Shown here one piece after another: positions 2-64,000 of a DNA stretch of 64,000 nt. The stretch is from the NCBI GenBank assembly GCA_964518625.1, contig CAZFHC010000001.1, positions 111 through 64,110 on the forward strand, given 5' to 3'. Origin of the DNA: Candidatus Woesearchaeota archaeon. GTDB taxonomy: Archaea > Nanobdellota > Nanobdellia > Pacearchaeales > GW2011-AR1. The notes under the pieces were generated by a model. The model was not told the origin of the DNA, did no database searches, and saw only the letters and a list, made by a program, of their open reading frames with translations. Made by a program: the position numbers and the translations under genes. Each line of letters starts with the position of its first letter. Position 1 is the stretch's first letter.

Positions 2-1129
2 TCTGGTAAGTCTTATACTATTGGTACTATCGCTGAGGCTTTGGCTGATCTAGGCATAGAGGAATCTGGGAATATTGCTTCTTTAATTTTTGATACTATG
101 GGTATTTATTGGACTATGAAATATAAAAATGAGAAAGATAAAAAATTACTTTCTGATTGGGATTTAAAAGCTAAGCTTCTTCCATTGAAAGTTTTTGCTC
201 CGTTTGGCTATTATCAAGATTATCTAGATAAAGGAATTTCTGTTGATTCCCCATTTGCTATTAAATTATCTGAACTTAATTCATCTGATTGGATTGGTGT
301 GTTTGAATTAAATTTTACTGATTCTGTGGCTATTGCTATTGAGGAAACTATTTCTAAATTAAAGTCTGAAAAGGATAGTTTCGACTTTAAGGATATTTAT
401 AAGAAGTTGGAATCTTTTAAAAATATTAATCAGGAAATTAAAAATGCTGCTGGTGCTTTATTTCGTGCTTCTGAGAGCTGGGGAATCTTTAATGAAGAAT
501 TTGGGACTTCTATCAATGATTTGGTTAAAGCTGGACAAAGTACTATAATTGATTTGTCGATGTATGCTTCTTTAGGAAGTTTTAATATTCGTGCTTTAAT
601 TATTGGTTTAGTTTCTAAAAAATTATTTAATCAACGTATGTTGAGTCGTAAAATAGAAGAGATTCAGGCTGTTCAGCATGGCGAAAATTACAGTCGTTTT
701 AATACTGTTCGTGATATGCCTTTAGTTTGGATTTTTATTGATGAGGCTCATGAGTTTTTACCTAAGGATGGAAAGACTCCTGCATCTGATGCTTTAATTC
801 AGATTCTAAGAGAGGGTCGTCAACCTGGATTGAGTTTGGTTGTTGCGACTCAGCAGCCTGGTAAAATTCATACTGATGCTATTACACAATCTGATATTGT
901 TATTTCTCATAGAGTTACTGCTGCTTTGGATGTTAAAGCATTAAATGATATTAGTCAATCATATTTGTATTCTAGTATTTCTGATAAAATCAATGGGTTG
1001 CCTCATTTGAAAGGTTCTGCTATTATTCTAGATGATAGTTCTGAGAGAATTTACCCTATGAGAGTTCGTCCAAGATTTACTTGGCATGGTGGTGAAGCTC
1101 CTACTGCAATTAGAAAAAATGCTGATTGA
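2..1129 (+). CDS. HerA/FtsK-like P-loop ATPase (DUF87/HerA-type), 5' end truncated by the window edge
   Basis: The frame is open from position 2. A Walker A tail (S-G-K-S/T) sits at nt 2-13. Walker B is IFIDEAHEF followed by VVATQQP. The ORF track only starts at an internal TTG at 41. Confidence 0.6.
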   Translation, partial: SGKSYTIGTIAEALADLGIEESGNIASLIFDTMGIYWTMKYKNEKDKKLLSDWDLKAKLLPLKVFAPFGYYQDYLDKGISVDSPFAIKLSELNSSDWIGVFELNFTDSVAIAIEETISKLKSEKDSFDFKDIYKKLESFKNINQEIKNAAGALFRASESWGIFNEEFGTSINDLVKAGQSTIIDLSMYASLGSFNIRALIIGLVSKKLFNQRMLSRKIEEIQAVQHGENYSRFNTVRDMPLVWIFIDEAHEFLPKDGKTPASDALIQILREGRQPGLSLVVATQQPGKIHTDAITQSDIVISHRVTAALDVKALNDISQSYLYSSISDKINGLPHLKGSAIILDDSSERIYPMRVRPRFTWHGGEAPTAIRKNAD

Positions 1130-7144: not shown

Positions 7145-7693
7145 ATGGCAAAACAAATATATGCTCAAATTCCAAGTAAGTATATTCCAGCTTTGGCTGA
7201 GGCTTTGAAAAATTTACCTGAGATTGAAGCTCCTGAATGGATCGCTTATGTTAAGACTGGAACTTCTAGAAAAAGGCCTCCTGTAAGTGATAATTTTTGG
7301 TATATTAGAGCTGCTAGTATTTTAAGACAATTGTATATCAAAGGTGTTGTTGGTGTTGGGAAATTACGAACTAGATATGGTTCTAGAAAAGATAGAGGTG
7401 GAAAGCCTGATCATTTTAGGAAAGCTAGTGGTAAGGTTATCAGACTTATTTTACAGCAAGCTGAAAATGCTGGTTTAGTTGAAAAAGTTGATAAAATGCA
7501 ATATGGTAGAAGATTAACTGCTAAAGGTAGAGAATTTTTAGATAGTATTAAGGTAGAGAAAATAGAGGGTTTGTCTTTAGAAGATTCTATTGTTGAGATT
7601 AGTAATGTTCCTCAAGAAGATATTCAAGAATTTGCTGAAACTGAAGTTGAAGAAATTAAAGCAGAAAGTGAGGTTATTTCAGATGGCGAGTAG
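7145..7693 (+). CDS. rps19e: 30S ribosomal protein S19e (eS19)
   Basis: ALKNLPEIEAPEWIAYVKTGTSRKRPP...WYIRAASILRQLYIKG....GGKPDHF is the canonical eS19 core, followed by an acidic C-terminal extension. Confidence 0.85.
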   Translation: MAKQIYAQIPSKYIPALAEALKNLPEIEAPEWIAYVKTGTSRKRPPVSDNFWYIRAASILRQLYIKGVVGVGKLRTRYGSRKDRGGKPDHFRKASGKVIRLILQQAENAGLVEKVDKMQYGRRLTAKGREFLDSIKVEKIEGLSLEDSIVEISNVPQEDIQEFAETEVEEIKAESEVISDGE

Positions 7694-7898
7694 AAAAGCT
7701 ACAATGCGTAGTAGTAAGAAAAGACACTTAGATAAAGTTGGTAAGCAAACAAGATGGGCTCCTTATTGGACTGTTATAAAGAAATATGGTAAGGGTAAAA
7801 AGATTCATCCGTCTAAGCATACTCATGTTAAGAGAAATTGGAGAGTTAGAAAATTAAAATTCAAGCCTAGAAGAGCTAAAAAGAGTTGGCTAGGATAA
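7683..7898 (+). CDS. rpl39e: 50S ribosomal protein L39e (eL39), C-terminally extended
   Basis: KKRHLDKVGKQTRWAPYWTVIKK...KRNWRVRKLK matches the eL39 pattern (KRLAKA.KQNR..P.W...KT....RRHWRRTKL). The ATG at 7683 is preferred over the ORF-track start at 7590, which would overlap S19e. Confidence 0.6.
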   Translation: MASRKATMRSSKKRHLDKVGKQTRWAPYWTVIKKYGKGKKIHPSKHTHVKRNWRVRKLKFKPRRAKKSWLG

Positions 7899-7902
7899 AA
7901 AT

Positions 7903-8619
7903 ATGGTTGAAGAAAAAATAAACAAAACAGAGAAAGTTGAGATAAAGAATGAAGTTAAAGAGACTAAGAAAGCAGTAATAAAACCTGAAGTAAAAAAAAC
8001 TGAATCCAAACCTTCTGTGAAAAAACCTAAAACTAGTAAAGCTAAAACTGAAGAAAAGAAACCTGAATTGGAAAGAATTTATGTTGTTCCATTAAGAAAA
8101 GGATATATGAAAGTTCCTCAATATAAGAGAGCAAAGAAAGCTGTTAAGACTTTGAAAGAATTTTTGGCTAAGCATATGAAAGTTGAAGATAGAGACATTG
8201 ACAAAGTTAAGGTTGATATTTATTTGAATAATGAAATTTGGTTTAAAGGAATTAAGAAACCATTGAATAAGGTTAAGGTTAAAGCTACAAAAATTGATGG
8301 TATTGTTTATGCTGAGTTGGCTGAAGTTCCTGAAATTGTAAAGTTCAAGATGGCTAGAGATGCTAGAAGAGGAACAAAAGTAGATAAAAAAGCACTTGAT
8401 AAAGTTGTTACTCAAGAAGCTGCTGAAGAAAAAATTAAGGAAGAAAGAAGCGATAAAACTGATAAAAAAGAAGAATCTATAAAAGAAAAAGTTAGTATTG
8501 ATGCTAAAGTTGCTAAGCAAAAAATTGATGCTAAAGAAATTAAGCATACAGCAAATCCAAAATCTACAAAGGAAGATAATATGTCTTCTACTACAATGAG
8601 AAAAGCTTTGAAAAAATAA
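7903..8619 (+). CDS. rpl31e: 50S ribosomal protein L31e (eL31) with Lys-rich N- and C-terminal extensions
   Basis: ERIYVVPLRKGYMKVPQYKRAKKAVKTLKEFLAKHMKVE..VKVD..LN..IW..GIKKP is the eL31 core. Confidence 0.75.
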   Translation: MVEEKINKTEKVEIKNEVKETKKAVIKPEVKKTESKPSVKKPKTSKAKTEEKKPELERIYVVPLRKGYMKVPQYKRAKKAVKTLKEFLAKHMKVEDRDIDKVKVDIYLNNEIWFKGIKKPLNKVKVKATKIDGIVYAELAEVPEIVKFKMARDARRGTKVDKKALDKVVTQEAAEEKIKEERSDKTDKKEESIKEKVSIDAKVAKQKIDAKEIKHTANPKSTKEDNMSSTTMRKALKK

Positions 8620-13104: not shown

Positions 13105-14239
13105 TATGAATGTTGAAGATTTTTTTAGTAAATTTAGAAAACGAATTACTTTTAATTATGATAGATTTAAATTGTTTTTTGATGTAAATCAGTTGATTTT
13201 TAGTTCAATTTATGTTGATAAGGGAACTTTGCATTTACTTAACTCTTTTAGGAAAACTTGTAATGTAAATTATGGGCGAATTTTGGATGTTGGCTGTGGT
13301 TATGGTTCAATTGGAATTTATTTAAAAAAGAAATATTTTGATTCTTATGTAGAATGTGTTGATAGGGATGCTTTATCTTTGGAATTTTGTCAACATAATG
13401 CTATTTTAAATAATTGTAATATTAATGTTCATCCTAGTCTAGGATATAATTCTGTTGATGGTAAATTTGATTTGATTTGTTCTAATTATCCTGCTAAGGC
13501 TGGTAAAAATGCTTTGAAAGATTTTGTTTATAATGCTTCTAGATTTTTGGAAAAGGATGGTGTTTTAGCTATTGTAATTGTAAAAGAATTGGTTGAAGAT
13601 TTTAAAGATATATTAAAAGATGAAATCCAAATTATTTATGAAGAAGCCTCTAGTGGGCATGTGGTTTATCATATTAAATTTAGTGATGTTTTGAATTTTG
13701 ATGAGAATAATTATTCTAGAGGTAATAATGAATTTATTATTGGAAATGAAAAATATATTTTGGATTGTGCTTATAATATTGCTGAGTTTGAAGATATTAG
13801 TTTTTCTAGTTGTGCAATTATCGAAATTTTGAAAAATTTATCTACTAAAAAAATTGATGTAATTCGTCCTTTCCAGGGTTATTTGCCATTAGCTATTTCA
13901 TATTATTTGAAACCCGAAAAAATTAATTTAATATCTAGAGATTTGTTATCTTTGACATTCTCTTCTAAAAATTTAGAAACTTTTGGCTTCAAAAATATTA
14001 GAATATTTCATCAGTTTTTAAGTGATAATAGAAAGGGTGAGCTTCTTGTTTGGAATGTTGATAAAGAATTGGAATTTGAACAATTTAAGTTTGAGATTGC
14101 TATGGTTTTGAAAAATTTTGATACTGTTGTTATTGGTGGAAAGAAATCAAAGCTTATGCGTTTTATGAAGGATTCTGGAATTGATTATTCTAAGAAAATT
14201 GAAATTAAAAATGCTGTTGCTTTGATATTAAAAAGTTAA
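13088..14239 (+). CDS. Class I SAM-dependent methyltransferase (RsmC/RlmG-like, possibly tandem domains)
   Basis: ILDVGCGYGSIGIYL is SAM motif I. SNYPAKAG is an N/DPPF-like motif IV variant. A second degenerate half follows. Confidence 0.55.
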   Translation: MNSKINMNVEDFFSKFRKRITFNYDRFKLFFDVNQLIFSSIYVDKGTLHLLNSFRKTCNVNYGRILDVGCGYGSIGIYLKKKYFDSYVECVDRDALSLEFCQHNAILNNCNINVHPSLGYNSVDGKFDLICSNYPAKAGKNALKDFVYNASRFLEKDGVLAIVIVKELVEDFKDILKDEIQIIYEEASSGHVVYHIKFSDVLNFDENNYSRGNNEFIIGNEKYILDCAYNIAEFEDISFSSCAIIEILKNLSTKKIDVIRPFQGYLPLAISYYLKPEKINLISRDLLSLTFSSKNLETFGFKNIRIFHQFLSDNRKGELLVWNVDKELEFEQFKFEIAMVLKNFDTVVIGGKKSKLMRFMKDSGIDYSKKIEIKNAVALILKS

Positions 14240-14820
14240 GATAATTGAAGAGCTTCTTTTATTGAATCAATTGAATCAATTGCTATTTGAAAAAATATTG
14301 AAAGTTCTAATCCTGCTTTTTCTATTTCTTTTATTATTTCTCTGTTACATGTTTGAGCAAATGCTTTATTCTTGAATCTCTTTTTTAGCCCTTTAACTTG
14401 CATGTCAGATATTTTTTTACCTCGCATTAAAGCATATGCATAGATTATTCCAGTTAGTGTTTCTGATGCTGCAAGACAGTATTCTATTTTTTGTGTTCGT
14501 TGTTTATCTTTGAACTCTGGAATAATATCATGTCCATATGTATGGCTTTGCATTATTTTTATTGTCTCTTCATCAAAACCTAATTTTTTTAGCATATTTA
14601 CCATTTGTATTCCATGATTTGCAACATCATTTTTTGTATTTGCCCAATCTATATCATGTAAAAGTCCTAACATTGCCCAATATTCTTCGTTCTCTCCAAA
14701 ATATTTTGCTAATCCTTTCATAATTGCTTCGGATTCTAGATAATGATTCATTTGAGATTGATCATTGTTTAAACTTATCAAGAATTCTATTGCTTGTTCT
14801 CTTGTTATTGGTAGATTCAT
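14236..14820 (-). CDS. HD-domain phosphohydrolase
   Basis: The H...LLHDIDW motif (an HD metal-binding pair). Confidence 0.6.
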   Translation of the reverse strand: MNLPITREQAIEFLISLNNDQSQMNHYLESEAIMKGLAKYFGENEEYWAMLGLLHDIDWANTKNDVANHGIQMVNMLKKLGFDEETIKIMQSHTYGHDIIPEFKDKQRTQKIEYCLAASETLTGIIYAYALMRGKKISDMQVKGLKKRFKNKAFAQTCNREIIKEIEKAGLELSIFFQIAIDSIDSIKEALQLS

Positions 14821-16310
14821 TTTATTGTATTAAGCAATTCTATTATTTTATCTTGTCCTATTGAACGAATAAAACCTGCTAATCTTGGACCTTTTGATTT
14901 ATTAATAATAGCTCTATATGATATATCAAAGAATTCTTTATTTGTAATTCCTGTTTTTTCAAATATTTCATAAAATTCCCCTAACATTTCTTTATCAGTC
15001 TCATATTCTTGAATTTCTAAAACTTTTTTTAATTCTAATAATACTTCTTTTTCTTTATCGGTAAAATTTTCAGTTATTTTTTCTTGCACTGAAAACTTCA
15101 TATCATCTCCAGCATATTTTGATAACCAGTTTGAAACTTTCTCTGCTCTTAATTTGCTCTCTGAATTTAGATCATTTGTTTTACCTAATTGGACTAATGT
15201 GATTAAATGTCTAAACCCTTCTCTTTCTGGTTTTAATTTTGGAATATTTAATACTGAATATTCATAGATCATCTTTTCTTGTGGATTCACTTTTTCTTCA
15301 AAATATTTTGTTTCTAATCTATCAAAATCTTCATAAATTTTTATTACATCATTATCAAAACTTATTTGAAATTTTGACTTTGGTTTTGTTCCTGTAAATA
15401 AATATCTTAAAATACTTGATTCATATACTGACTCAACTTCATCTAATGTCATTGCATTTCCTGAAGAACTTGAAAATTCTCCTCCACCTTTTACACTAAT
15501 CCATTCATAAAATTGATAAATTGGTGGCTCAAATCCAAATATCTCTTGTGATATTTCTTTTGATGTCGTAAAAGATCCTCCATGAACACTATGATCTATT
15601 CCTCCTGGTTCAAAATCTACACCTTCATAATACCATCTTAATGGCCAATCTACTCTCCATTTTATGCTAACAATTCCCTTTTTTCTTATGTCAAATGTTT
15701 CTTTATATCCACATTTACATTCATATTCAATATTATATCCATCAGTTGAAAGTATTTTTGTCATATCTTTTTTACATTTATCACAATATATCATTATTGG
15801 CATCCAATCTTCTGCTAATGGTTCTCTTCTATACTTATCTAAAATATCCATTATTTTTCTTCTTTTTTCTAATGATAATTTTATTAAATCTGCATAAGAT
15901 GATTTCTTATTCATTTTATTTTGATAAATATACTCTGCTTGAATATCTATTTTTGATAGTGATTTTTCAAATACTTTTTCATTGTATTCTGAGTATGTCA
16001 TATTTGGATTATTAGGTGAAGGAATATCACTTATTGGCATTCCTAAATATTTTTCATAATTTACATCTACTCCTTTTGGTACTTTTCTAAATCTGTCATA
16101 ATCATCCCAAGAATAAATAAATCTTACCTTTTTTCCTTTGTCTCGTAATGCTTTTACAACCATGAATGTTGTGATTACTTCTCTAAAATTCCCAATATGG
16201 ACTTGACCTGATGGTGTAATCCCTGATGCACAGACATATTCTTCTTTGTCTCCTTTTTGTTTGATTATGTTCTCTGCAACAGCGTCTGCCCAAAAAAATT
16301 TCTCTGCCAT
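14817..16310 (-). CDS. lysK: Lysyl-tRNA synthetase, class I (archaeal type)
   Basis: PSGQVHIGNFRE is the HIGH motif. GGEFSSSSGNAMT is the class I LysRS KMSSS-type motif. A CxxC...C zinc module is present. Confidence 0.85.
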   Translation of the reverse strand: MAEKFFWADAVAENIIKQKGDKEEYVCASGITPSGQVHIGNFREVITTFMVVKALRDKGKKVRFIYSWDDYDRFRKVPKGVDVNYEKYLGMPISDIPSPNNPNMTYSEYNEKVFEKSLSKIDIQAEYIYQNKMNKKSSYADLIKLSLEKRRKIMDILDKYRREPLAEDWMPIMIYCDKCKKDMTKILSTDGYNIEYECKCGYKETFDIRKKGIVSIKWRVDWPLRWYYEGVDFEPGGIDHSVHGGSFTTSKEISQEIFGFEPPIYQFYEWISVKGGGEFSSSSGNAMTLDEVESVYESSILRYLFTGTKPKSKFQISFDNDVIKIYEDFDRLETKYFEEKVNPQEKMIYEYSVLNIPKLKPEREGFRHLITLVQLGKTNDLNSESKLRAEKVSNWLSKYAGDDMKFSVQEKITENFTDKEKEVLLELKKVLEIQEYETDKEMLGEFYEIFEKTGITNKEFFDISYRAIINKSKGPRLAGFIRSIGQDKIIELLNTIK

Positions 16311-20249: not shown

Positions 20250-20867
20250 GTGACTACAAACAAAAAGGCTTTTAAAGCTATTATTATTACTATAACTATG
20301 TTAAAAAATAAAAAAGATTTAGAAGAACTCTGTAAAGATAAGGATGTAATTATTATGGTTCCTACAGCTGGTCCTCGTTTTGATAAATATAGAGCTAAGG
20401 CGGCTGTGATTGCTGAAAAAAAAGCAACTTGTAATTATGAAGGTTTAAATTTGCCTTATATTGTTAGCGGAGCTATTAAAAAAGACGACAAATATCTTCC
20501 TAATGAGAGAATGATTAGCTTACTAGAAAACTATGGTGTTTCTAAAGAAGCTATTTTTGAAGAACATAGTTCTCATAATACAGCAGAAAATCTTTACGAA
20601 ACTGTTAAATTTGCAAAAGAAATGAACATAAAGGATATTGCGATATCCACTGGAACATCTCATTATTTGAGATTTAAAGTTGATCTGAAACATTTAAAAT
20701 CTTTAGGATTGGTTAATAAAGATACAAAGATATACCCTATTCCTATATCTTATAAAGGAGCTAAAGTAGAATATAATCTTAAAAGAGAGGCTAGAAATGT
20801 ACTTGCTCTTGCTAAAGCTATCTTTTTAGATTGTCATAATTATAAATTTTCTACTAATGCTAGTTAG
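20250..20867 (+). CDS. DUF218 (YdcF/ElyC/SanA-like) domain protein
   Basis: The EEHSSHNTAENLYETVKF motif (conserved E..S.NT.EN of DUF218). Confidence 0.55.
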   Translation: MTTNKKAFKAIIITITMLKNKKDLEELCKDKDVIIMVPTAGPRFDKYRAKAAVIAEKKATCNYEGLNLPYIVSGAIKKDDKYLPNERMISLLENYGVSKEAIFEEHSSHNTAENLYETVKFAKEMNIKDIAISTGTSHYLRFKVDLKHLKSLGLVNKDTKIYPIPISYKGAKVEYNLKREARNVLALAKAIFLDCHNYKFSTNAS

Positions 20868-22041: not shown

Positions 22042-22764
22042 ATGATTGTTAAATTAGATACGCCAAAGTTATTGTCTGACGCTGTTGCTGTAATTTCTGA
22101 ACTTGTTACAGAAGTTAAAATAAAACTTTTAGAAGATGGTATGAGTATTATTGCTGTTGATCCTGCAAATGTTGCTATGGTTATTTTTAAATTACCTCGT
22201 GAAAGTTTCTCTAGTTATGAAGCTAATAATGATGTTTGGGGTATTAATTTGGAAAGTTTGAAGAGAATTTTAAAAAGAGCTTCTGGAGCTGCTAGTATTA
22301 TATTTGAGCAGGAAGATAATAAGTTAAATATTGCTATTTATGATAAAGTAAAAAGAAATTTTACATTATCTTTAATTGATGTTGATTCTGAGGAAAAAGA
22401 TGAACCTAGTTTAGAATTTTCGACTACTGTTGAATTGAATTCCACTGAGCTTGTCCAGTCTATTGAAGATTGTGCTGTTGTTGCTGAAAGTTGTTCGTTT
22501 ATTGCTGGAGAGAATTTTTTTGTTGTTGAAGCTAGTGGTTCAATTAATTCCTTTAGAGCTGAATTTAATGATGATAATGGAGAGATTAATGGTATTGGTA
22601 AAGCTAAATACTCTTTGGAATATTTGAATAAGTTTATCAAAGCTCAAAAAATTTCTAATAAAGTTATTTTAAGATTCTCTGATGATTATCCTTTAAGGAT
22701 GGATTTCCCTGGAGAAAAAATGGGAATTGGTTTTGTATTAGCACCAAGAGTTGAAAACGATTAA
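22042..22764 (+). CDS. pcn: DNA polymerase sliding clamp PCNA
   Basis: About 240 aa with a two-domain PCNA pattern (KLL.DAV..ISELVTEV.IK..EDGMSI.AVDPANVAMV...L), an acidic interdomain loop, and a C-terminal LAPRVE. Confidence 0.75.
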   Translation: MIVKLDTPKLLSDAVAVISELVTEVKIKLLEDGMSIIAVDPANVAMVIFKLPRESFSSYEANNDVWGINLESLKRILKRASGAASIIFEQEDNKLNIAIYDKVKRNFTLSLIDVDSEEKDEPSLEFSTTVELNSTELVQSIEDCAVVAESCSFIAGENFFVVEASGSINSFRAEFNDDNGEINGIGKAKYSLEYLNKFIKAQKISNKVILRFSDDYPLRMDFPGEKMGIGFVLAPRVEND

Positions 22765-22768
22765 ATTT

Positions 22769-23635
22769 TTATTTATACAAATATTTTAGTTCTTTAATTG
22801 CTGGGTTTTGAAATAATTTTTTTAATGCTTTTTTTTGAATTTGTTCTATACGTTGTTTTGTAAGATTATACTTTTTACCGATTTCCTGAAAAGTTTTTTC
22901 GTTTTCTTCTGAATTTATTCCAAATCTTTCTTTTATAATATCTGCCTCTCTTTCATTTAAACTTGAATTAATTATTTTTTCTATATCAGAAACACCGCTA
23001 CTTGATTTTAATCTATCAATATCCTTTGTTGGACTATAATAATTAGTTCCTATATTATCAACTAAAGATGTATTATCCTCTAATATTGGGTAATCTAGAG
23101 AAAGAACAGTTTTTCCAATTTCAAGTAAAGAGTTTAGTTCTTTTTTTGTCTTTGATAAAATTTTTGAAATTTTTTCTATAGAATACCCTTCTGAACGATA
23201 TACTTTTACTTTACTTAATATTTCTCTTTTTTTAAGTGGTATTCTTATGCCATATGCATTTTCACCCAATGCCTTATAAATTGATTCTTTTATCCAATTT
23301 ACACTATATGTCGATAAAGTACCAATGGAAGGATCATATTTATCTATAGCTTTCATTAAACCAATATTCCCTTCTTGAATTAAATCTATTAACTCCATAC
23401 CTTTATTTTGGTAATTTTTAGCTATGGAAAATACAAAAAATAACTGAGATTTAACCAAAACATCTCTATACTCAGGAGTCATACCTTCTTCTAGTATTTT
23501 CTTACCTATCTCTTTTTGTTCTTCAACAGATATCCTATATTTATCAGCTTCATTCAAATATATTTCTAAATTATTTTTTTTATCAGTATTCAAATATATT
23601 TCTGAATGTTCTTTATTATTAATCATATCTTTCAA
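22769..23635 (-). CDS. Bacterial-type sigma-70 family RNA polymerase sigma factor (group 3/FliA-SigB-like size)
   Basis: Region 2 is LIDLIQEGNIGLMKAIDKYDP...TYSVNWIKESIYKAL. Region 4 is LNEREADIIKERFGINSEENEKTFQEIGKKYNLTKQRIEQIQKKALKKL. Confidence 0.8.
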   Translation of the reverse strand: MKDMINNKEHSEIYLNTDKKNNLEIYLNEADKYRISVEEQKEIGKKILEEGMTPEYRDVLVKSQLFFVFSIAKNYQNKGMELIDLIQEGNIGLMKAIDKYDPSIGTLSTYSVNWIKESIYKALGENAYGIRIPLKKREILSKVKVYRSEGYSIEKISKILSKTKKELNSLLEIGKTVLSLDYPILEDNTSLVDNIGTNYYSPTKDIDRLKSSSGVSDIEKIINSSLNEREADIIKERFGINSEENEKTFQEIGKKYNLTKQRIEQIQKKALKKLFQNPAIKELKYLYK

Positions 23636-23815
23636 TTTAACTTATTGTTTATAAACTTTTTCAATTGTAACTATTTTATAGTTGTTACTTGTTGTGGAAA
23701 GATGTTTAGTATATTTCATTTCTGTTTTAAAATAGTGAAAAAGCTATTGGATTAAATTGTATAATAGTTTATAATCTTTCTAAAAATTTAAAAACTTCAT
23801 AGTTGTAATTATTTT

Positions 23816-24511
23816 ATGAAAAAGAGAGATGATTTTGGTGACCATACTGATATTCCTAGTTCTAATGAAATTTCTGATGTTTTGTTGAAGAAAAGTTTAA
23901 ATCGTGGAGAGAAAGTTAATAAAAATAAAAAGAAATCTAAAAATAAAAAATTTACTTTTAGTAAGAATAAAGTAAAAAAGAAAATGGAAAAAGAGTCCAA
24001 AAATAAAAAAACACGAGATATTGTAAAGAGAACTAAACCGATTAAAAATAAAAATGAATCAAAAGTGAAGAATAAGAAACATATTGAGATTCATGCTAAG
24101 ATATTTGTAGTTATTGTATGTGTTTTAGTTATTTTAGGAGTTTTGAGTTATTTTACTATTATTAATTTTGATGTTGTTAAAAATGGATTTATTTCGACTT
24201 CTGGATTTTTTTTAAATATTATTACTACTTCTAGTTCTGATTTGGATGAAATTGATTTTTCTGATGTTAAAATCGATAAGTTGAATATTGATTTATTAAC
24301 TGAAAATATTGAGCTTGAAACTAAAGTTACTAGTCAATTAAATTCTAAGTGTAATGATGAGAAAAGCACATTGGAAGCTAATATTAGGAAAGATGAGCAA
24401 GCTAAATGTAAAATTGAAACTGATGTTTTAAGTAATGAGATTGATGAGTGGACAACAAAGTATAATAGTTGTAGTGATGATTTAGATGAGTGCGAAGAGG
24501 GTAATGAATAA
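23816..24511 (+). CDS. Membrane protein with Lys-rich cytoplasmic N-terminus, single TM, and coiled-coil Cys-containing ectodomain
   Basis: About 90-aa K-rich N-region, then TM IFVVIVCVLVILGVLSYFTII, then an acidic coiled-coil C-terminal segment. Divergent from the sigma factor gene. Confidence 0.45.
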   Translation: MKKRDDFGDHTDIPSSNEISDVLLKKSLNRGEKVNKNKKKSKNKKFTFSKNKVKKKMEKESKNKKTRDIVKRTKPIKNKNESKVKNKKHIEIHAKIFVVIVCVLVILGVLSYFTIINFDVVKNGFISTSGFFLNIITTSSSDLDEIDFSDVKIDKLNIDLLTENIELETKVTSQLNSKCNDEKSTLEANIRKDEQAKCKIETDVLSNEIDEWTTKYNSCSDDLDECEEGNE

Positions 24512-24783
24512 TGAAAGTAAAAAAAGATAAATTTGTAAAGAAGCACCATGTTTGGGGTGGTATCGGAATTATTATTGGTATTGTAATTACAATTGTTGTT
24601 ATTGGTATTTTTAGTTACAAGTATGTGCATTATGTTGAACAGGAAGGGTATGTTAAAGGTGGTGAAGATATGGCTAGATTGATTTATGATAATGTTGCTG
24701 AATATGGAGGAGCATCGATTGAAGTTGGTGGAGAAAAAATTATTGTTGCGAAATATGAGAAACCGATTGGTGGTATTGAGTAG
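24511..24783 (+). CDS. Small membrane protein
   Basis: One TM (GGIGIIIGIVITIVVIGIF). The start overlaps the upstream stop (ATGA). Confidence 0.4.
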   Translation: MKVKKDKFVKKHHVWGGIGIIIGIVITIVVIGIFSYKYVHYVEQEGYVKGGEDMARLIYDNVAEYGGASIEVGGEKIIVAKYEKPIGGIE

Positions 24784-24785
24784 TT

Positions 24786-26261
24786 ATGGTTGTTTTGTCT
24801 AAATCTGGTTATTTAGCTGGTTTGCAATGTCATAAATTACTTTGGGTGAAAGCTAAAGATAAAGCGAGATTCCCTAAGATTGGTGAATTTAAGCAATCTA
24901 TTTTTGATAATGGTCATGTTGTTGGTCAATTGGCAAAAAAACTTTTTCCTGAAGGGATTGAACTTTCTGATGAGAATTTTTCTGAGAATTTAAAATTGAC
25001 AAAAGAAAATTTGGATAAAAAAAGACCTTTGTTTGAGGCTGCTTTTATGGTTGATGAATTATATTCTAGAGCTGATATTCTGAGTCCTAATGATGATGGG
25101 AGTTGGGACATCTATGAGGTTAAATCATCTACAAAAGTTAAGGAAATTAATTTACATGATGTTAGTTTTCAGAAGTATGTTTATGAATTAGCAGGTTTGA
25201 ATATTCGGAAATGTTTTTTAGTTCATATTAATAATAAATATATTAAACAGGGTGAGTTGGATGTTCAAGGATTTTTTCATATTAGTGATGTTAGTCATGA
25301 TATCGAACCATATTTTGAGAATATTGAATCTAGGGTTTTACAAATGTTGAGTATTATGATGGGAGATGAACCTAATGTTGAAATTGGAGAGCATTGTTCT
25401 TCGCCCTATTCTTGTGATTTAGAACCAAATTGTTGGAAGTTTATTAAGGAAGGTAGTGTATTTGATTTGTATAGGGGTGGTTCTAGATCTTTTGATTTAT
25501 TTGAGAATGGTATTGTTGCCTTAAAAGATATTCCTGATTATTATAGGTTATCTGAAATCCAAATGATTCAAAGAGATGTTGCAATTAAGGAAGAGACCTA
25601 TGTGAATAAAGAGGGTCTAAAAAACTTTTTGAATAAATTACAATATCCTATTTATTATTTAGATTTTGAAACGATTAATCCTGTTATTCCTAAGTTTGAT
25701 GGGATGAAGCCTTATCAAAGAATCCCATTTCAATTCTCGTTACATATTCAGAAAAGTATTGGTAGTGAATTGGAACATGTTTCTTTCTTACATAAGAATC
25801 GTGATGATTCACGTAAATCTTTTATGCAAGCTCTAAAAGATAATCTTGGTGAAGTTGGAACTATTTTAGTTTATAATCAAAGTTTTGAGATTGGTGTAAT
25901 GAGAGAATCTTCTTATGCTTTTTATGAATTTAAAGATTGGTTTGCTGAGATTCAGCCTCGTATACTTGATTTATTGGTTCCATTTAAAAATTTTGATTAT
26001 TATAATGCCAAGCAAAAAGGCTCTTGTTCTATTAAAGCTGTTTTACCTGTCTTTTCGGATTTGAATTATAAAGATTTAGAAATTGGGAATGGTGCTATTG
26101 CAAATTTGCTTTATGAAAAAGCTACATTTAGTGATATGAATGATACCGCGAAAAAGAAAATTTATGATGATTTAGAAGTATATTGTCATCAAGATACGTT
26201 GGCTGAAGTTAAAATTATTGATGGATTATATAAGATTACAGAAAACGATATAGTTAATTAA
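24786..26261 (+). CDS. Cas4-like PD-(D/E)xK nuclease fused to a DUF2779 (DnaQ-like exonuclease-fold) domain
   Basis: N-terminal Y..GLQCHK, D-IYEVK (D...E.K) and a 4-Cys cluster (C...CSSPYSC....C) resemble Cas4/RecB-family nucleases. The C-terminal YYLDFETINP...QFSLHI resembles a DEDD exonuclease motif. Confidence 0.6.
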   Translation: MVVLSKSGYLAGLQCHKLLWVKAKDKARFPKIGEFKQSIFDNGHVVGQLAKKLFPEGIELSDENFSENLKLTKENLDKKRPLFEAAFMVDELYSRADILSPNDDGSWDIYEVKSSTKVKEINLHDVSFQKYVYELAGLNIRKCFLVHINNKYIKQGELDVQGFFHISDVSHDIEPYFENIESRVLQMLSIMMGDEPNVEIGEHCSSPYSCDLEPNCWKFIKEGSVFDLYRGGSRSFDLFENGIVALKDIPDYYRLSEIQMIQRDVAIKEETYVNKEGLKNFLNKLQYPIYYLDFETINPVIPKFDGMKPYQRIPFQFSLHIQKSIGSELEHVSFLHKNRDDSRKSFMQALKDNLGEVGTILVYNQSFEIGVMRESSYAFYEFKDWFAEIQPRILDLLVPFKNFDYYNAKQKGSCSIKAVLPVFSDLNYKDLEIGNGAIANLLYEKATFSDMNDTAKKKIYDDLEVYCHQDTLAEVKIIDGLYKITENDIVN

Positions 26262-26932
26262 TTGCCGCCGTATCGCCTATTTCTTCTTGAATATTCTTTG
26301 ACTGCTTTTTGTAAATCTTTTGTTTTGAAACTTGGAAAGAATCTTTTTGTAAAATATAATTCTGAATATACTGATTGGTATGGCATAAATCCTGATAACC
26401 TCTTTTCTCCACCTGTTCTTATTATTAAATCTGGATTTGGTATATTTGCTGTATCTAAATTTTTGTAGAAGTTCTCTATTGTGACTTGCTTTTTATCAGT
26501 TTTTTTTATTGCTCTAATTATTTCATCTTGTCCACCATAATCTATCGCTAAGATTAAAGTAAATTTGTTATTTCTAGTTTCTTTTTCTATTTTTGATAGT
26601 TTTATTCTAAGTGATTTTGGAATTCTATCTTTTCTTCCTATGTGTATTAATTTATATTTTAATGTTTTTTTAGTGAATAAGTCATCTATTAACTTTTCAA
26701 TTATATGCATTATTATTTCAATTTCTTTTTCTGACCTTTTCCAATTTTCTGTTGAAAATCCCCATGCCGATATATATTCTATACCTAATTTTTGAGCTGC
26801 TTCGCAAAGTTCTATTATATTTGTATATGTTCCAGCTTTTTCGTGTCCTTTCGTTCCGACTAGTCCTCTTCTTTTTGCCCAACGCCTATTCCCATCTGGA
26901 ATAATTGCTACATGTTTTGGTATTTTATTCAT
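26258..26932 (-). CDS. uppS: Undecaprenyl/di-trans,poly-cis-prenyl diphosphate synthase (cis-prenyltransferase)
   Basis: HVAIIPDGNRRWAKRRGL plus conserved downstream motifs (ISAWGFSTENWKRS; RTGGEKRLSGF). Confidence 0.85.
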   Translation of the reverse strand: MNKIPKHVAIIPDGNRRWAKRRGLVGTKGHEKAGTYTNIIELCEAAQKLGIEYISAWGFSTENWKRSEKEIEIIMHIIEKLIDDLFTKKTLKYKLIHIGRKDRIPKSLRIKLSKIEKETRNNKFTLILAIDYGGQDEIIRAIKKTDKKQVTIENFYKNLDTANIPNPDLIIRTGGEKRLSGFMPYQSVYSELYFTKRFFPSFKTKDLQKAVKEYSRRNRRYGGN

Positions 26933-54905: not shown

Positions 54906-56651
54906 CTATTTTTTATCTTCGGCTGCTTTAGCTGCATTCTCGTAAATCTTGATTCCAATCTCTTCAGAAGCACTTTTAAAATAATCAATTTCATCGTGAA
55001 TTTTTTTTGTCTTGCCAGATTCAATAGCTTTAACTAAGAATCCCATTGCATCTTCAACTTTAGTAATTGTTGCAGAATCTATTTTATCTTTATACTCCGC
55101 TATCATCTTCAAAGTTGAATAAATAATTCCTTCAGCTTCGTTTTTTGCTAATATAAAATCTCTCTTTGCTTCATCTTCAGCCTTATGATCCTTAGAATCT
55201 TTAATCATTTTCTGAATTTGTTCTTCTGATAATGATCCACCTGTTACAGTAATCTTTTGTTCTTTACCTGTTCCAAGGTCTTTAGCAGAGACATTAACTA
55301 TACCATTAGTATCAATATCGAAAGTTACTTCAACTTGAGGTATTCCTCGTGGTACTGGTAAAATACCAGCTAATTCAAATGTCCCTAAAGATTGATTGTC
55401 TGCAGCAAATTCTCTTTCTCCCTGTAAAACATTAATTGTAACTGTCTCTTGATAATCAACAGTTGTTGTAAATATATCACTCTTCTTTGTTGGGATTGTA
55501 GTGTTTCTGTCAATTAATGTTGATTTTAAACCACCATCTACTTCAATTCCAAGTGTTAATGAGGTTACATCAAGAAGTAAAATATCCTGAATATCACCGC
55601 TAATAATTGCACCTTGAATTACAGCACCTAATGAAACAGCTTCATCTGGATTAATAGAATTATCAGGAGCCATACCTGTCATCTCTTCAACGATTTCTTT
55701 AACCTTAGGAATTCTAGTACTTCCACCGACTAAAATTACTTTATCAATTTTAGGTGATTTAGCATCTTTGATTGCTTGCGTAATTGGAGCTTTTAATCTT
55801 TCGAAAATTGATTCACAAATTTCTTCAAATTTTTCTCTAGTTAAATCAATATCTAAATGTTTTGCACCATTATCATTTGTAATGATATAAGGAATCGCAA
55901 TATTTGTCTTTACTGAAGAACTTAATTCAATTTTTGCATTTTCTGCAGCTTCTCGTAATCTTTGTAATGCAATTAGATCAGAAGATAAATCAATATCATT
56001 TTCTTTTTTAAATTCTTCAATCATATAATCAATTAAAGCATTATCAATATCATCACCACCAAGATAATTATCTCCGCTTGTAGATTTAACCTCAAAAACT
56101 CCACCACCTAATTCTAAAATAGAAACATCGAATGTTCCACCACCAAAATCAAAGACTAAGATAGTATGATCATATTCTTCTTTAAGACCGTATGCTAAAG
56201 CAGCTGCTGTTGGTTCATTTATAATTCTTTTAACGTTTAAACCAGCAATAACACCTGCATCTTTTGTTGCATTTCTTTGTGCATCTCCAAAATAAGCAGG
56301 GACTGTAATTACAGCATCAGTTACTTCATGACCTAAATATTCTTCAGCGTCTTTTTTTAATTTTTTTAGAATCATAGCTGATATTTGTTCTGGGGAATAT
56401 TCTTTTTCACCAACCTTGGTTATTTTTTTAGTACCCATAAGTCTCTTAATACTTCTAATTGTTCCTTTTGGATTTGCGACTGCTCCTCTCTTTGCTATAT
56501 CACCAACAACAACTTTATCTTCTTCAATAGAAACTACGCTAGGAGTAGTATTATGCCCTTCTGTATTTTTGATTATTTTTGGTACACCACCTTCCATAAC
56601 GCTAACCGCGGAAAAAGTAGTACCTAAATCAATTCCAATTATTTTACTCAT
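54906..56651 (-). CDS. dnaK: Chaperone DnaK (Hsp70)
   Basis: [15 protein letters not shown]; [12 protein letters not shown]; [13 protein letters not shown]; C-terminal lid. Confidence 0.95.
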
Positions 56652-57088
56652 TGTGTTACCTTTACAATCTTAACTTTTGAAGCCCTTAAAAGCTTATCGT
56701 TTAGTAGATATCCTTTCTGAATCTCTTCAATGATTTTCCCATCCTTTTTACCAGGAACTTGCATTATTGCTTCATGGACATTTGGATTAAAAGTGTTGGT
56801 AGTATTAATATATTTAAGTCCATTCCTTTCTAAAATTTTAGTGAATTGGTTGTAGATTAGTTTAACTCCTTTGTCTTTACTATGTTTAAAAGATAATTCA
56901 AGGTTGTCTAAGACATCAAGCAATTGTAATACGAGATTTGCATTTGCATTTGCTAAGATATCTGTGTTTTCTTTCTCTGTTCTTTTACGAAAATTTTCAA
57001 ACTCAGCTTGCATTCGCTGTAGTCTTTCAATAAGTTCTTCTTTTGTTGGCTCTTTATTTTTTTCTTCTACCATATATTCTTTTCTCAA
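56648..57088 (-). CDS. grpE: Nucleotide exchange factor GrpE
   Basis: 146 aa. A coiled-coil N-terminus and GrpE-type beta C-terminus (GKIIEEIQKGYLLNDKLLRASKVKV). Overlaps the dnaK start. Confidence 0.75.
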   Translation of the reverse strand: MRKEYMVEEKNKEPTKEELIERLQRMQAEFENFRKRTEKENTDILANANANLVLQLLDVLDNLELSFKHSKDKGVKLIYNQFTKILERNGLKYINTTNTFNPNVHEAIMQVPGKKDGKIIEEIQKGYLLNDKLLRASKVKIVKVTQ

Positions 57089-57159
57089 AAGCCTCTTTTA
57101 AGGCTTATGTTAGTGTCCATGACAGAAATCATTTGTATGCTCAAACTTAAAAACCCAAA

Positions 57160-57708
57160 ATGAACTATATTATTATGTTAAAAATAAAAGGTAACGAAAT
57201 TGAAGAACCAAGTATTACAAACTCATTTGGTCGTAGAGCAGTCCAGCTTCAGAATAAAATTATAAATGTATTAAAGCAATTGGGAGTTGATCGTGATTAT
57301 GTAGATTTAAAGATAGAGAATATTCCGCAAAAGAAAGCTCCAGCTTCGGTATCATGGTATTATAATGGTCGTAATTTGAAATATACTTATTCACTTATGC
57401 CAAGATTTATTGAAAATCTTTATGTTATTAATAAAGTTCTAACATTAGAAGTCGAAAAATTGTTATCAGGAGAAATCACAAAAGATAAATTTGGTAGAGA
57501 ATTCTCTGAAGATGATAATTTATCTGATCAATTAACAGAAGCAAGAAAAACATTAGAAGTTAGTCCAACAGAAACTGATTTTGAAGTTATAAGTAAAAGT
57601 TACAAAAAACTCGCAAGAAAATATCATCCAGATATGTCTACTGGAGATCATAAACTATTTTTGGAAATTAATGCTGCACATAAATTGATTAATAAAGAAT
57701 TAAATTAA
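57160..57708 (+). CDS. J-domain protein with the J domain at the C-terminus (non-canonical DnaJ-like co-chaperone)
   Basis: The C-terminal DFEVISKSYKKLARKYHPDMSTGDHKLFLEINAAHKLI carries the HPD tripeptide in J-domain helix II/III context. No Zn-finger or DnaJ C-terminal domains. Confidence 0.55.
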   Translation: MNYIIMLKIKGNEIEEPSITNSFGRRAVQLQNKIINVLKQLGVDRDYVDLKIENIPQKKAPASVSWYYNGRNLKYTYSLMPRFIENLYVINKVLTLEVEKLLSGEITKDKFGREFSEDDNLSDQLTEARKTLEVSPTETDFEVISKSYKKLARKYHPDMSTGDHKLFLEINAAHKLINKELN

Positions 57709-62882: not shown

Positions 62883-64000
62883 TTATTTTTTGTAACAAGA
62901 ATTTTTTATGTGTTTTTTTGCCGCGAATGTTTTTGTAAATTTTAACCAATCTCTTGATGGACCATTAGATTTTGAAGATACAATTATTTCTACTATATCT
63001 TCGTTCTTTAATGTAGTTGACAAAGCTACCATTTTACCATTTACTTTTGCTCCCATACATTTATTCCCAATTTCTGTATGAATCGCATATGCGAAATCTA
63101 CCGGAGTTGAATCTTTTTGTAAATGGATAATTTTGCCTTTTGGAGATTGAACAAATATTTCACCTTCATACAAATCTACCTTAAATGCATTAATTAATTC
63201 TTCATTTGTCATTGAATTACTTTGTTCAATTAATTCTCTTATCTGTTTTAGTTTTGTATCAAAAGAATTCATTTTTATTCTTTTTTCTTTGTAAACCCAA
63301 TGAGCTGAAATCCCAAATTCAGAATTTTTATGCATTTCAAATGTTCTTATTTGTATTTCTACTGGTATTGAATTGAATAGAACAGTTGTATGAAGTGACT
63401 GATATCCATTAAATTTTGGAAGAATTATATAATCTTTAAATCGCCCTATTAATGGAGTAAATTCTTCTTGTATTTTCCCTAAGACTGTATAACATTCTGG
63501 AATAGTCTTTACTAATATTCTAAATGCTATCATATCATAAATTTGACTTAAATCGCAATTTTTATTCATTGTTTTTCTATATATACTATAAATATGTTTT
63601 TTACGTCCCATAACTTCTCCATCAACATTTAATAACTTTAACATAGAAGTAAGATTTTTATTAATTGATGCGATTATTATTTTCGATCCTTTAAACTCTT
63701 CATCAATCTTTGTCTCTATTTTTTCATATATTTTTGGATTTAAAACCTTAAATGACCTATCTTCAAGTTCACTTTTTATCTTTGACAATCCCAAATTTGA
63801 TGCAAGTGGAGCAAAAATATCTAAATTGATTTTAACTTTATATTCTTGTTCTTTTTTTGTATACATATTTATACTTCGCATTTCTGCCAAAGCAAAAGCT
63901 AGTCTAATAAATATAACTCTTATATCTCTTGAAATCGCTAGAAACATACGTCTAATATTTTTGGCTTCGTCTTTTTTATTAGTATTAAGATTCGTTTTAT
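62883..64000 (-). CDS. RelA/SpoT-family (p)ppGpp synthetase/hydrolase with TGS domain, N-terminus beyond the window edge
   Basis: The end of the HD domain (NIRRMFLAISRDIRVIFIRLAFALAEMRSI, against the RelA pattern DIRVILIKLADRLHNMRTL). The synthetase domain (GRKKHIYSIYRKTMNK....IYDMIAFRILV; YQSLHTTV; IQIRTFEMHKNSEFGISAHWVYKE). The TGS domain (IFVQSPKGKIIHLQKDSTPVDFAYAIHTEIGNKCMGAKVNGKMV). The frame stays open past nt 64000. Confidence 0.75.
   Translation of the reverse strand, partial: KTNLNTNKKDEAKNIRRMFLAISRDIRVIFIRLAFALAEMRSINMYTKKEQEYKVKINLDIFAPLASNLGLSKIKSELEDRSFKVLNPKIYEKIETKIDEEFKGSKIIIASINKNLTSMLKLLNVDGEVMGRKKHIYSIYRKTMNKNCDLSQIYDMIAFRILVKTIPECYTVLGKIQEEFTPLIGRFKDYIILPKFNGYQSLHTTVLFNSIPVEIQIRTFEMHKNSEFGISAHWVYKEKRIKMNSFDTKLKQIRELIEQSNSMTNEELINAFKVDLYEGEIFVQSPKGKIIHLQKDSTPVDFAYAIHTEIGNKCMGAKVNGKMVALSTTLKNEDIVEIIVSSKSNGPSRDWLKFTKTFAAKKHIKNSCYKK

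Follow-up and report, generated by a model that had tools for sequence, protein, structure and literature searches.

We identify a gene for a sigma-70 family protein in the chromosome of an archaeon, within a 64,000-nucleotide stretch of DNA that we refer to as the window (Candidatus Woesearchaeota archaeon, assembly GCA_964518625.1, contig CAZFHC010000001.1; positions are those of this stretch). The gene occupies 22769..23626 on the minus strand, next to the gene for PCNA, and is divergent from a trio encoding two membrane proteins, here called TM231 and TM90, and a two-domain nuclease. Bacterial transcription initiation is defined by sigma factors; archaea use TBP and TFB. Our analysis shows that this is a real sigma-70 gene in an archaeal chromosome and makes it probable that it came there as a single-gene insertion. 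All four open reading frames (ORFs) that a sequence-only reading of this DNA had called, before any database search, are present at their positions, and most of what that reading said about the individual genes stands; its proposal that the four form one acquired module does not, as shown below by comparison with related genomes.

The minus-strand ORF is an intact, real sigma-70 family protein, in which Pfam, NCBIfam, the AlphaFold (AF2) model and Foldseek together delineate regions 1.2, 2, 3 and 4, without region 1.1. Regions 2 and 4, already recognized in the sequence-only reading, are borne out by hidden Markov model (HMM) searches with scores of 52.6 bits for Sigma70_r2 (Pfam cut-off 24) and 51.4 bits for Sigma70_r4 (cut-off 24.1). 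Sigma70_r3 gives 20.2 bits, below its cut-off of 25.3, and the AF2 model places a three-helix sigma3 at residues 131–172 with a predicted local distance difference test (pLDDT) of 83–95. The NCBIfam RpoD/RpoS models align with the protein from end to end at about 157 bits and none reaches its equivalog cut-off (157.7 against 555, 157.0 against 354 and 156.6 against 378.7); scores so far below these cut-offs indicate a sigma-70 family protein and not an ortholog of RpoD or RpoS. In a phmmer search of PDB sequences, residues 23–284 match regions 1.2 to 4.2 of solved RpoD/SigA chains. The AF2 model, built from 57 sequences, comprises sigma1.2/sigma2 (14–127), sigma3 (131–172) and sigma4 (209–284) at pLDDT 83–98 across the domains, with sigma3 and sigma4 connected by a disordered 3.2-type linker, and its best Foldseek matches are all sigma chains in holoenzymes (E ~1e-11, probability 1.00). 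Translation can begin at ATG 23626, giving 285 aa, or at an upstream TTG at 23635, giving 288 aa; the ATG is the likelier start because it agrees with the database protein P0001 and because a TATA-like element then falls at –29/–27. The N-terminus of the protein, just before and into region 1.2, contains a repeated 'EIYLN...' peptide, the product of a 36-nt tandem duplication with 78% identity at 23536–23607 inside the gene. An assignment as MzaA of the MZA anti-phage system was considered and rejected: the MzaA equivalog model gives 146 bits against a cut-off of 800, the PADLOC match is restricted to the generic sigma part, and no MzaB-E partner genes are adjacent.

The locus is an ordinary stretch of an archaeal chromosome, whose assignment as Pacearchaeota-like (DPANN) is based on named homologs of the nuclease and the sigma. 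The window encodes PCNA, L10e, S19e, L31e, class I LysRS, a form III-type RuBisCO and an archaeal-type RNA methyltransferase, and its GC content is 25–31% throughout. Since sigma-70 proteins are elsewhere those of bacteria and the genome was assembled from a metagenome, the sigma segment might in principle be bacterial contamination or an assembly chimera, mis-joined into an archaeal contig. We find this barely credible, as there is no break in composition or codon usage: the tetranucleotide profiles of 3.5-kb segments spanning the locus correlate with that of the whole window at 0.979–0.989 (window mean 0.978), and the codon usage of the sigma gene (r = 0.92 against the window; GC3 0.128) is among the most host-like. 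Its stop codon is only 4 nt from that of PCNA, the archaeal flank and synteny anchor (22042..22764, plus strand; Pfam PCNA_N and PCNA_C; 48 related loci). Moreover, a separate Logan assembly (run SRR8862237) yields an independent 5.7-kb contig that spans the locus in the order DUF218-UPF0020-PCNA-sigma-TM231-TM90-nuclease, and the sigma ORF is identical in the two assemblies. An archaeal-type TATA-like element at the sigma gene and related sigma genes on other archaeal contigs, both described below, also argue against a mis-join, as does the exclusion of mis-binning for DPANN sigma genes in the literature (PMC8204110). The archaeal context claimed in the sequence-only reading is thus upheld by the flanking genes, by tetranucleotide continuity and by a second assembly with the same join.

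Comparison with related genomes points to the sigma gene as the newcomer. A metagenome scan with PCNA returned 48 related loci. A sigma gene was found at none of the 38 loci of relatives with full-length PCNA, 27 of which extend at least 1.5 kb downstream of PCNA. In the closest relative (L177; PCNA 88% identical, 86-kb contig) the order is UPF0020, PCNA, a 47-bp spacer, TM231, TM90, uppS and U32, with neither sigma nor nuclease, and a second relative (L222) has PCNA, TM231 and TM90. A 261-kb JGI contig, whose copy in ENA (L176) begins after PCNA, carries L35Ae, L10e, UPF0020, PCNA, a 192-aa ORF, a 132-aa ORF and the nuclease, again with no sigma; the two ORFs are weak homologs of TM231 and TM90, and the nuclease (P0147) is the closest relative of the one in the window, at 58% identity. 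On the right, the window is syntenic with L177 at the undecaprenyl-diphosphate synthase family gene uppS (26258..26932, minus strand). By blastn, homology with L177 stops at 22769, resumes inside TM231 and skips 24786–26247, and the 47-bp spacer between PCNA and TM231 in L177 aligns by eye to about 23775–23815 of the window. These boundaries imply that about 1.0 kb with the sigma gene is extra in this genome: a segment at 22765..23774 (right boundary approximate), comprising the gene and about 140 bp upstream, is absent at the syntenic position in relatives. The simplest and most parsimonious history is insertion of one gene, about 1 kb, into a PCNA-TM231-TM90(-nuclease) string that was already in place, the lineage of L177 having lost the nuclease. 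A single-gene insertion would make the divergent pairing of sigma with the trio incidental. The locus shows neither an integrase nor att or viral genes.

The signals upstream of the gene are of the archaeal type. Among 52 window genes, TATA-like hexamers cluster at –30 to –26 of the start codons, with 31 of 74 occurrences in this one 5-nt bin, and a Shine-Dalgarno (SD)-like motif is found in only 5 of the 52. This geometry is that of archaeal leaderless transcription, and transcripts in this genome seem to be mostly leaderless. The sigma gene has a TATA-like element, TTTATAAA (23648..23655, minus strand), at –29/–27 of its ATG, which these position statistics mark as a putative archaeal leaderless promoter. 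TM231 has TTTAAA (23787..23792, plus strand) at –29 of its start, with the same element and spacing in L177. Matches to sigma-70-type –35/–10 elements across the locus are at background level (35 found, 29.4 ± 6.3 expected), so that both divergent genes look like ordinary archaeal units. The imperfect inverted repeat noticed in the sequence-only reading, GTAACTATTTTATAGTTGTTAC, is indeed present at 23667..23688, in the intergenic region, and its perfect core AACTAT-N3-ATAGTT is no commoner than chance (1 found, 0.76 expected), for which we rejected it as an operator. The half-site 11-mer ATAGTTGTWAY occurs five times against 0.46 expected, a pattern set after two intergenic copies had been seen; the sites are at 23678 and 23799, both intergenic, and at 43432, 48406 (minus strand) and 59491 (minus strand), all three inside coding regions.

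The sigma protein has no close relatives in the databases searched. A word-indexed search returned its own entry (P0001) and then only matches of at most 42% identity, an exhaustive HMMER search of 1.84 billion representatives returned nothing above 44%, and the protein is a singleton at the 50% identity level. The sole near-identical copy has an identical protein sequence, and related homologs are saturated at 35–40% identity. A species-representative genome collection, scanned with the sigma alone, yielded no relative, so that the host genome is not one of its members. The phylogeny that the sequence-only reading had suggested as a route to the donor lineage gave a star-like neighbor-joining (NJ) tree, and we therefore took the placement from shared indels, which do group the protein with a few homologs. 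Five sigmas, namely the query, P0340, P0271, P0291 and P0276, have in common the loss of about 7 residues from region 3, a 'Y-x-P-x-E' segment, the motif 'READI[IL]K-R-x-G-x-N' and two residues inserted ahead of region 4.2; all four features are missing in the bacterial and phage comparators of our curated alignment. A profile of the five scores 407 bits for P0340, 380 for the query and 307 for P0413, with ordinary RpoD at about 255, and a search with it gives three strong matches before being swamped by Firmicutes RpoD; this quick drop to RpoD level indicates that the indel-sharing group is small.

At least part of that group is archaeal. P0340, named by NCBI as a sigma-70 family factor of a Pacearchaeota archaeon, is encoded in the Pacearchaeota metagenome-assembled genome (MAG) GCA_023136775.1 (L093) among eRF1, RadA, L35Ae and L10e. 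Within the indel-sharing group, archaeal context was verified for P0340 only, the short contig of P0271 being ambiguous and that of P0276 uninformative. P0269, the best full-length match of the sigma, lies on an archaeal contig beside L7Ae, S28e, L24e and Kae1. The indels group the protein with a few short sigma-70 homologs, of which the one traced to a named genome belongs to a Pacearchaeota MAG, and we regard it as a very divergent member of a small group that is at least in part archaeal.

Phage-like contigs (L002/L003 and L005/L006) carry several of the non-archaeal relatives with the highest scores and bacterial contigs carry others, the protein matches phrog_351 (PHROG 351) at 168.6 bits, and IMG/VR holds at least 557 homologs. 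Together with the single-gene insertion relative to neighboring genomes, this could mean that a virus or mobile element brought the gene in to redirect transcription and left it behind after decaying. We give this lesser rival a slim chance: no integrase, att-like repeats, capsid or other viral genes accompany the gene, both flanks are syntenic with L177 right up to it, the viral homologs are only 30–40% identical, the indel-sharing homologs sit among housekeeping genes, and the composition is fully host-like. The phage sigma-70 family factors of PHROG 351 resemble the protein in being short and sigma-only and in sequence distance; they differ from it in that there is no viral context here and in that the phage comparators lack the group-specific indels. 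On the phage-like contig L005, the sigma homolog P0005 (8001–8951) directly follows a small protein that contains the C-terminal domain of RNA polymerase alpha (7295–7849).

The residue pattern of the protein is one of changed or relaxed reading of DNA with a preserved polymerase-binding surface, and not one of uniform decay. Across the columns that are at least 90% conserved among the 119 nearest homologs, the sigma matches 46 of 66 while the homologs match 50–66 (median 65), making it the most divergent member of its neighborhood. Region 2.2, whose helix is in bacteria the main contact to the beta-prime clamp helices, is identical at 13 of 14 positions to L402-A415 of E. coli sigma-70 (rpoD), which also supplies the residue numbering through the curated alignment. 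The replacements fall in region 2.1 (N383Q, R385F), at the positions of –10 melting and recognition (W433N, Q437E, T440Y, R441K) and extended –10 recognition (H455K), and at those of –35 recognition (R584K, E585Q, R588E). They include W433, Q437, T440, R584, E585 and R588, the residues that read the –10 and –35 elements in E. coli, and the columns of the W, Q, E and R reading residues are 95–100% conserved across the 119 homologs. In the five indel-sharing sigmas position 433 is N/S/D/Y/W and position 437 is E/G/S/E/Q, and region 2.2 is kept in all five. We infer that the protein cannot read canonical bacterial promoters. Compared with RpoD/SigA and RpoS (groups 1 and 2), it has the same domain order (1.2-2-3-4), a near-identical region 2.2 and its best HMM and PDB matches; in contrast to them, it lacks region 1.1, scores 157 bits where the cut-offs are 354–555, carries the deletion of about 7 aa in region 3, has W433, Q437, T440, H455, R584, E585 and R588 replaced, and resides in a host with archaeal transcription signals.

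The main rival to a functional role is that the gene is a passenger, non-functional or nearly neutral, that arrived horizontally, has no partner RNA polymerase and is drifting. Its standing as the most divergent of its neighborhood, the replacement of key DNA-melting and DNA-reading residues, its absence from the closest relatives, its singleton status at 50% identity and the lack of any anti-sigma factor or conserved partner, here or in the earlier survey (PMC8204110), are all as expected of such a gene. We nevertheless judge it unlikely, since the ORF is intact and identical in two assemblies, its three domains are predicted to fold (pLDDT 83–98), region 2.2 is nearly that of E. coli, codon usage is among the most host-like with a TATA-like element at the modal position, and intact relatives of the gene are kept in one further Pacearchaeota genome at least.

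A mechanism consistent with these data would begin with transcription of the sigma gene by the archaeal TBP/TFB machinery. The product would still fold as a sigma and retain the helix of region 2.2 together with the helix-turn-helix of sigma4, and would have replaced most of the residues with which canonical –10, extended –10 and –35 elements are read; because of these replacements we think that it is not a classical promoter-specificity subunit. It would more likely be a re-purposed DNA-binding regulator, possibly docking on the homologous clamp coiled-coil of the archaeal RNA polymerase. In its most specific form, which we think quite improbable, a small group of archaeal sigma-70 descendants would have been co-opted for work with the archaeal transcription apparatus, with region 2.2 docked on the Rpo1N (A') clamp coiled-coil, to which the beta-prime clamp helices of bacteria are homologous, and re-specified surfaces of sigma4 and sigma2 bound to new DNA motifs. 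A sigma co-opted in this manner would not melt promoters; it would modulate initiation, for instance in competition with TFE or Spt5.

Several points weigh against the history and the function proposed here. The role of the protein in an archaeal cell is our inference only, and we offer the mechanism tentatively, as one that is on balance doubtful. The conservation of region 2.2 could reflect folding constraints and not RNA polymerase binding, and the 20 changes at near-invariant columns, with the lack of the gene in the nearest relatives, would also be expected of a passenger that is neutral or decaying. We found no subunit of a bacterial RNA polymerase in the scanned ORFs of the window, a search that covers 64 kb of the genome only. 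The grouping of the sigma is drawn from five sequences and their shared indels, and the star-like NJ tree of the top 146 homologs has distances of 0.62–0.64. As to the insertion, loss of the gene in three relatives is a less parsimonious alternative to gain in this genome. The sigma gene of the P0340 MAG (L093, 8001–8795) lies 5 kb from an L35Ae-L10e-UPF0020 cluster (13600–15545), and the same cluster precedes PCNA and sigma in the window; this proximity may go back to an ancestral linkage or be coincidental. The identity and history of the gene remain, in our assessment, the probable part of the account.

The two membrane proteins across the intergenic region are encoded by a lineage-conserved gene pair. 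TM231 (23816..24511, plus strand) is a single-pass protein by its topology, charge and homologs, and its stop codon overlaps the start of TM90 (24511..24783, plus strand), a small single-pass partner whose homologs directly follow those of TM231. TM231 has one transmembrane (TM) helix (aa 88–106), a Lys-rich N-terminal cytoplasmic tail with a net charge of +21 and an acidic, heptad-like C-terminal ectodomain with a net charge of –17 and four conserved Cys; among homologs, the conserved part is this extracytoplasmic four-Cys domain, and the basic tail varies in length between about 33 and 87 residues. TM90 combines one TM helix with a conserved Y-[IV]-KGG-[EQ]-D...GG domain. Homologs of TM231 follow PCNA in L177 (152 bits) and L222 (68 bits), with a weaker one in L176 (33 bits), and are accompanied by TM90 homologs at 128, 71 and 32 bits, respectively; the pair lies at 23816–24783 in the window, 8763–9745 in L177, 302–1122 in L222 and 52–1025 in L176.

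The sequence-only reading had likened TM231 to an anti-sigma factor. The Lys-rich, single-pass part of that description holds and the anti-sigma part fails: Pfam and NCBIfam scans show no anti-sigma domain in TM231, no sigma gene is adjacent to its homologs in L177, L222 or L176, and no TM231 homolog is present at the archaeal sigma loci L089, L091 and L093. Because its gene exists with no sigma beside it, TM231 does not qualify as a dedicated anti-sigma factor. Membrane-anchored anti-sigma factors of the RseA/RsiW type share with TM231 one TM helix, cytoplasmic and extracytoplasmic parts and a place beside a sigma gene; unlike them, TM231 lacks an anti-sigma domain and has a variable, low-complexity Lys-rich tail as its cytoplasmic part, and its gene is kept after PCNA in genomes with no sigma at the locus.

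The third gene of the trio (24786..26261, plus strand), separated from TM90 by 2 nt, encodes a two-domain nuclease that HMM, alignment, AF2 and fold searches resolve into a Cas4/EXO5-like four-Cys PD-(D/E)xK domain and a DUF2779 domain (DEDD, RNase T-like). Its description as a Cas4-like/DEDD double nuclease in the sequence-only reading is supported by the DUF2779 (PF11074) score of 132.6 bits (cut-off 23.3), by residues invariant in 31 sequences (C15/C204/C210/C216, D97/E111/K113, D293/E295 and Y466/D470) and by fold matches of the AF2 model (pLDDT 92). The N-terminal half matches Cas4 (8d3l_I; E 1e-4, target TM 0.54), 4ic1, 4r5q, human EXO5 and AdnAB, and the C-terminal half matches RNase T (E 3.5e-3, probability 0.98). 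PADLOC Cas4 hits the protein with E 1.8e-4; a PDB sequence-profile search with the nuclease family gave a weak match to the Pol I exonuclease region only, so the Cas4-like half is shown by fold search. We detected no link to CRISPR, with no array-like repeats and no Rfam match in the window and no cas gene among the scanned ORFs, and the N-terminal half is a 'solo' Cas4-like domain.

The nuclease has more than 5000 homologs, the best 120 of which are 49–58% identical over the full length; those of the best 120 with a named source are from Pacearchaeota, Nanoarchaeota or an 'archaeon', and the closest genome matches also include Woesearchaeota. In the species-representative genome collection it is encoded at at least 595 loci, with DPANN first, followed by Chloroflexota, Omnitrophota, Verrucomicrobiota and others at 40–48%. 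We examined the neighborhoods of 80 of these. The neighbor genes vary from locus to locus, with no TM231, TM90 or PCNA homolog near the nuclease in any of the 80, and a sigma-like ORF lies within 10 kb at two: L043, from a Dehalococcoidia bacterium, and L019, where a weak match (30.8 bits; 7364–8584, minus strand) and the nuclease are 2.4 kb apart in a MAG of 30% GC that bears the label 'uncultured Methanosarcinales archaeon'. L019 is the only archaeon-labelled locus among the 80 with any sigma-like match. In the P0340 MAG the sigma and the nuclease are on different contigs.

Other DPANN nuclease loci are often beside Dcm-type methyltransferase-, HsdR-, SbcCD- and type III restriction-modification-like genes, as judged from N-terminal sequences only (L007 3783–4847; L026 3080–4129; L016 6296–9107 and 10735–13074; L064 7339–11760), which hints at residence in defense islands. 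The nuclease is most likely a stand-alone DNA-end-processing enzyme, acting in repair or defense and independent of sigma. That DUF2779, an RNase H-like 3'-5' exonuclease, is associated with a PD-(D/E)xK domain was described in 2014 (PMC3985635), and the Cas4-like + DUF2779 fusion in 2026 for MMSYN1_0389 (PMC13621843). The protein resembles the DUF2779, UU173 and MMSYN1_0389 nucleases in its two-domain architecture, D...ExK motif and DEDD-type C-terminal domain; it scores 34.8 bits with NCBIfam UU173 (cut-off 225), and the DPANN/bacterial subfamily to which it belongs keeps four cluster cysteines, whereas MMSYN1_0389 reportedly has two (PMC13621843).

These observations bear on the proposal that sigma, an anti-sigma-like TM231, TM90 and the nuclease are a co-regulated regulatory or defense module acquired horizontally as one. 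The arrangement invites it: the genes diverge from a shared 180-bp intergenic region, the trio is as tightly packed as the sequence-only reading had noted (overlap at 24511, 2-nt gap to the nuclease), TM231 has a single-pass topology, and the nuclease is often found elsewhere in DPANN beside the restriction-modification-like genes just mentioned (N-terminal sequences only). The comparative data largely refute it and leave it very improbable. The co-occurrence of the four genes, checked in related genomes, did not materialize, with sigma at 0 of 38 PCNA loci and TM231/TM90 at 0 of 80 nuclease loci: TM231 and TM90 follow PCNA in relatives that have no sigma there, L177 lacks the nuclease, and the nuclease is not sigma-linked elsewhere, the two loci with a sigma-like ORF being the bacterial L043 and the weak match (30.8 bits) in L019. 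The separate contigs of sigma and nuclease in the P0340 MAG, the absence of an anti-sigma domain and the variable tail length of TM231, the chance-level core of the inverted repeat, the background level of sigma-70-type promoter matches (35 against 29.4 ± 6.3) and the archaeal TATA-like elements at both divergent genes all stand against such a module. Arrival of the sigma gene alone therefore remains our preferred history of the locus.

Other parts of the window offer observations in their own right. The DUF218 gene between L10e and UPF0020 (20250–20867, plus strand) is present in L178, L179 and L217 and absent from L177, which makes it another presence/absence difference in an otherwise syntenic block. 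A 362-aa ORF at 41–1129 (plus strand) has a borderline Zot-like P-loop match (20.9 bits, cut-off 20.3); the Zot family is known from filamentous phages. On the same contig as the sigma gene, a 354-aa RelA/SpoT-family protein (62883–63947, minus strand; RelA_SpoT 126 bits, TGS 83.5 bits, only the tail of the HD domain at its N-terminus) is a further bacterial-type regulatory enzyme, of (p)ppGpp metabolism. A bacterial-type chaperone cluster at 54906–57708 encodes DnaK (minus strand), GrpE (minus strand) and a divergent DnaJ-domain protein (plus strand), and fits the theme of bacterial systems in DPANN (PMC8204110).

Sigma-70 genes in DPANN genomes, especially those of Woesearchaeota, were reported by Castelle et al., who ruled out mis-binning, did not find an anti-sigma factor and left open how the proteins work (Castelle et al., 2021; PMC8204110). 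The gene described here is like their homologs (fam00359) in lying on a bona fide DPANN contig with no anti-sigma nearby. Unlike them, this copy shares no more than 44% identity with any known protein, has exceptionally diverged reading residues and can be recognized as a single-gene insertion that is specific to its lineage and has a TATA-like element of the archaeal type. The occurrence of a sigma factor in an archaeon and the architecture of the nuclease are both already published, and what is new is modest: a divergent member of the group, its single-gene insertion, its archaeal-type promoter and a residue pattern that carries a testable hypothesis.

The locus offers a clean, datable example of the insertion of a single sigma gene with an archaeal-type promoter, at which the neighboring genes are shown not to be sigma partners and no new defense or regulatory module is seen. 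A polymerase-binding helix that is kept, with promoter-reading residues that are replaced, suggests the testable hypothesis of a bacterial factor re-purposed in an archaeal cell. If co-option were true, a bacterial initiation factor would be working with an archaeal, Pol II-like polymerase.

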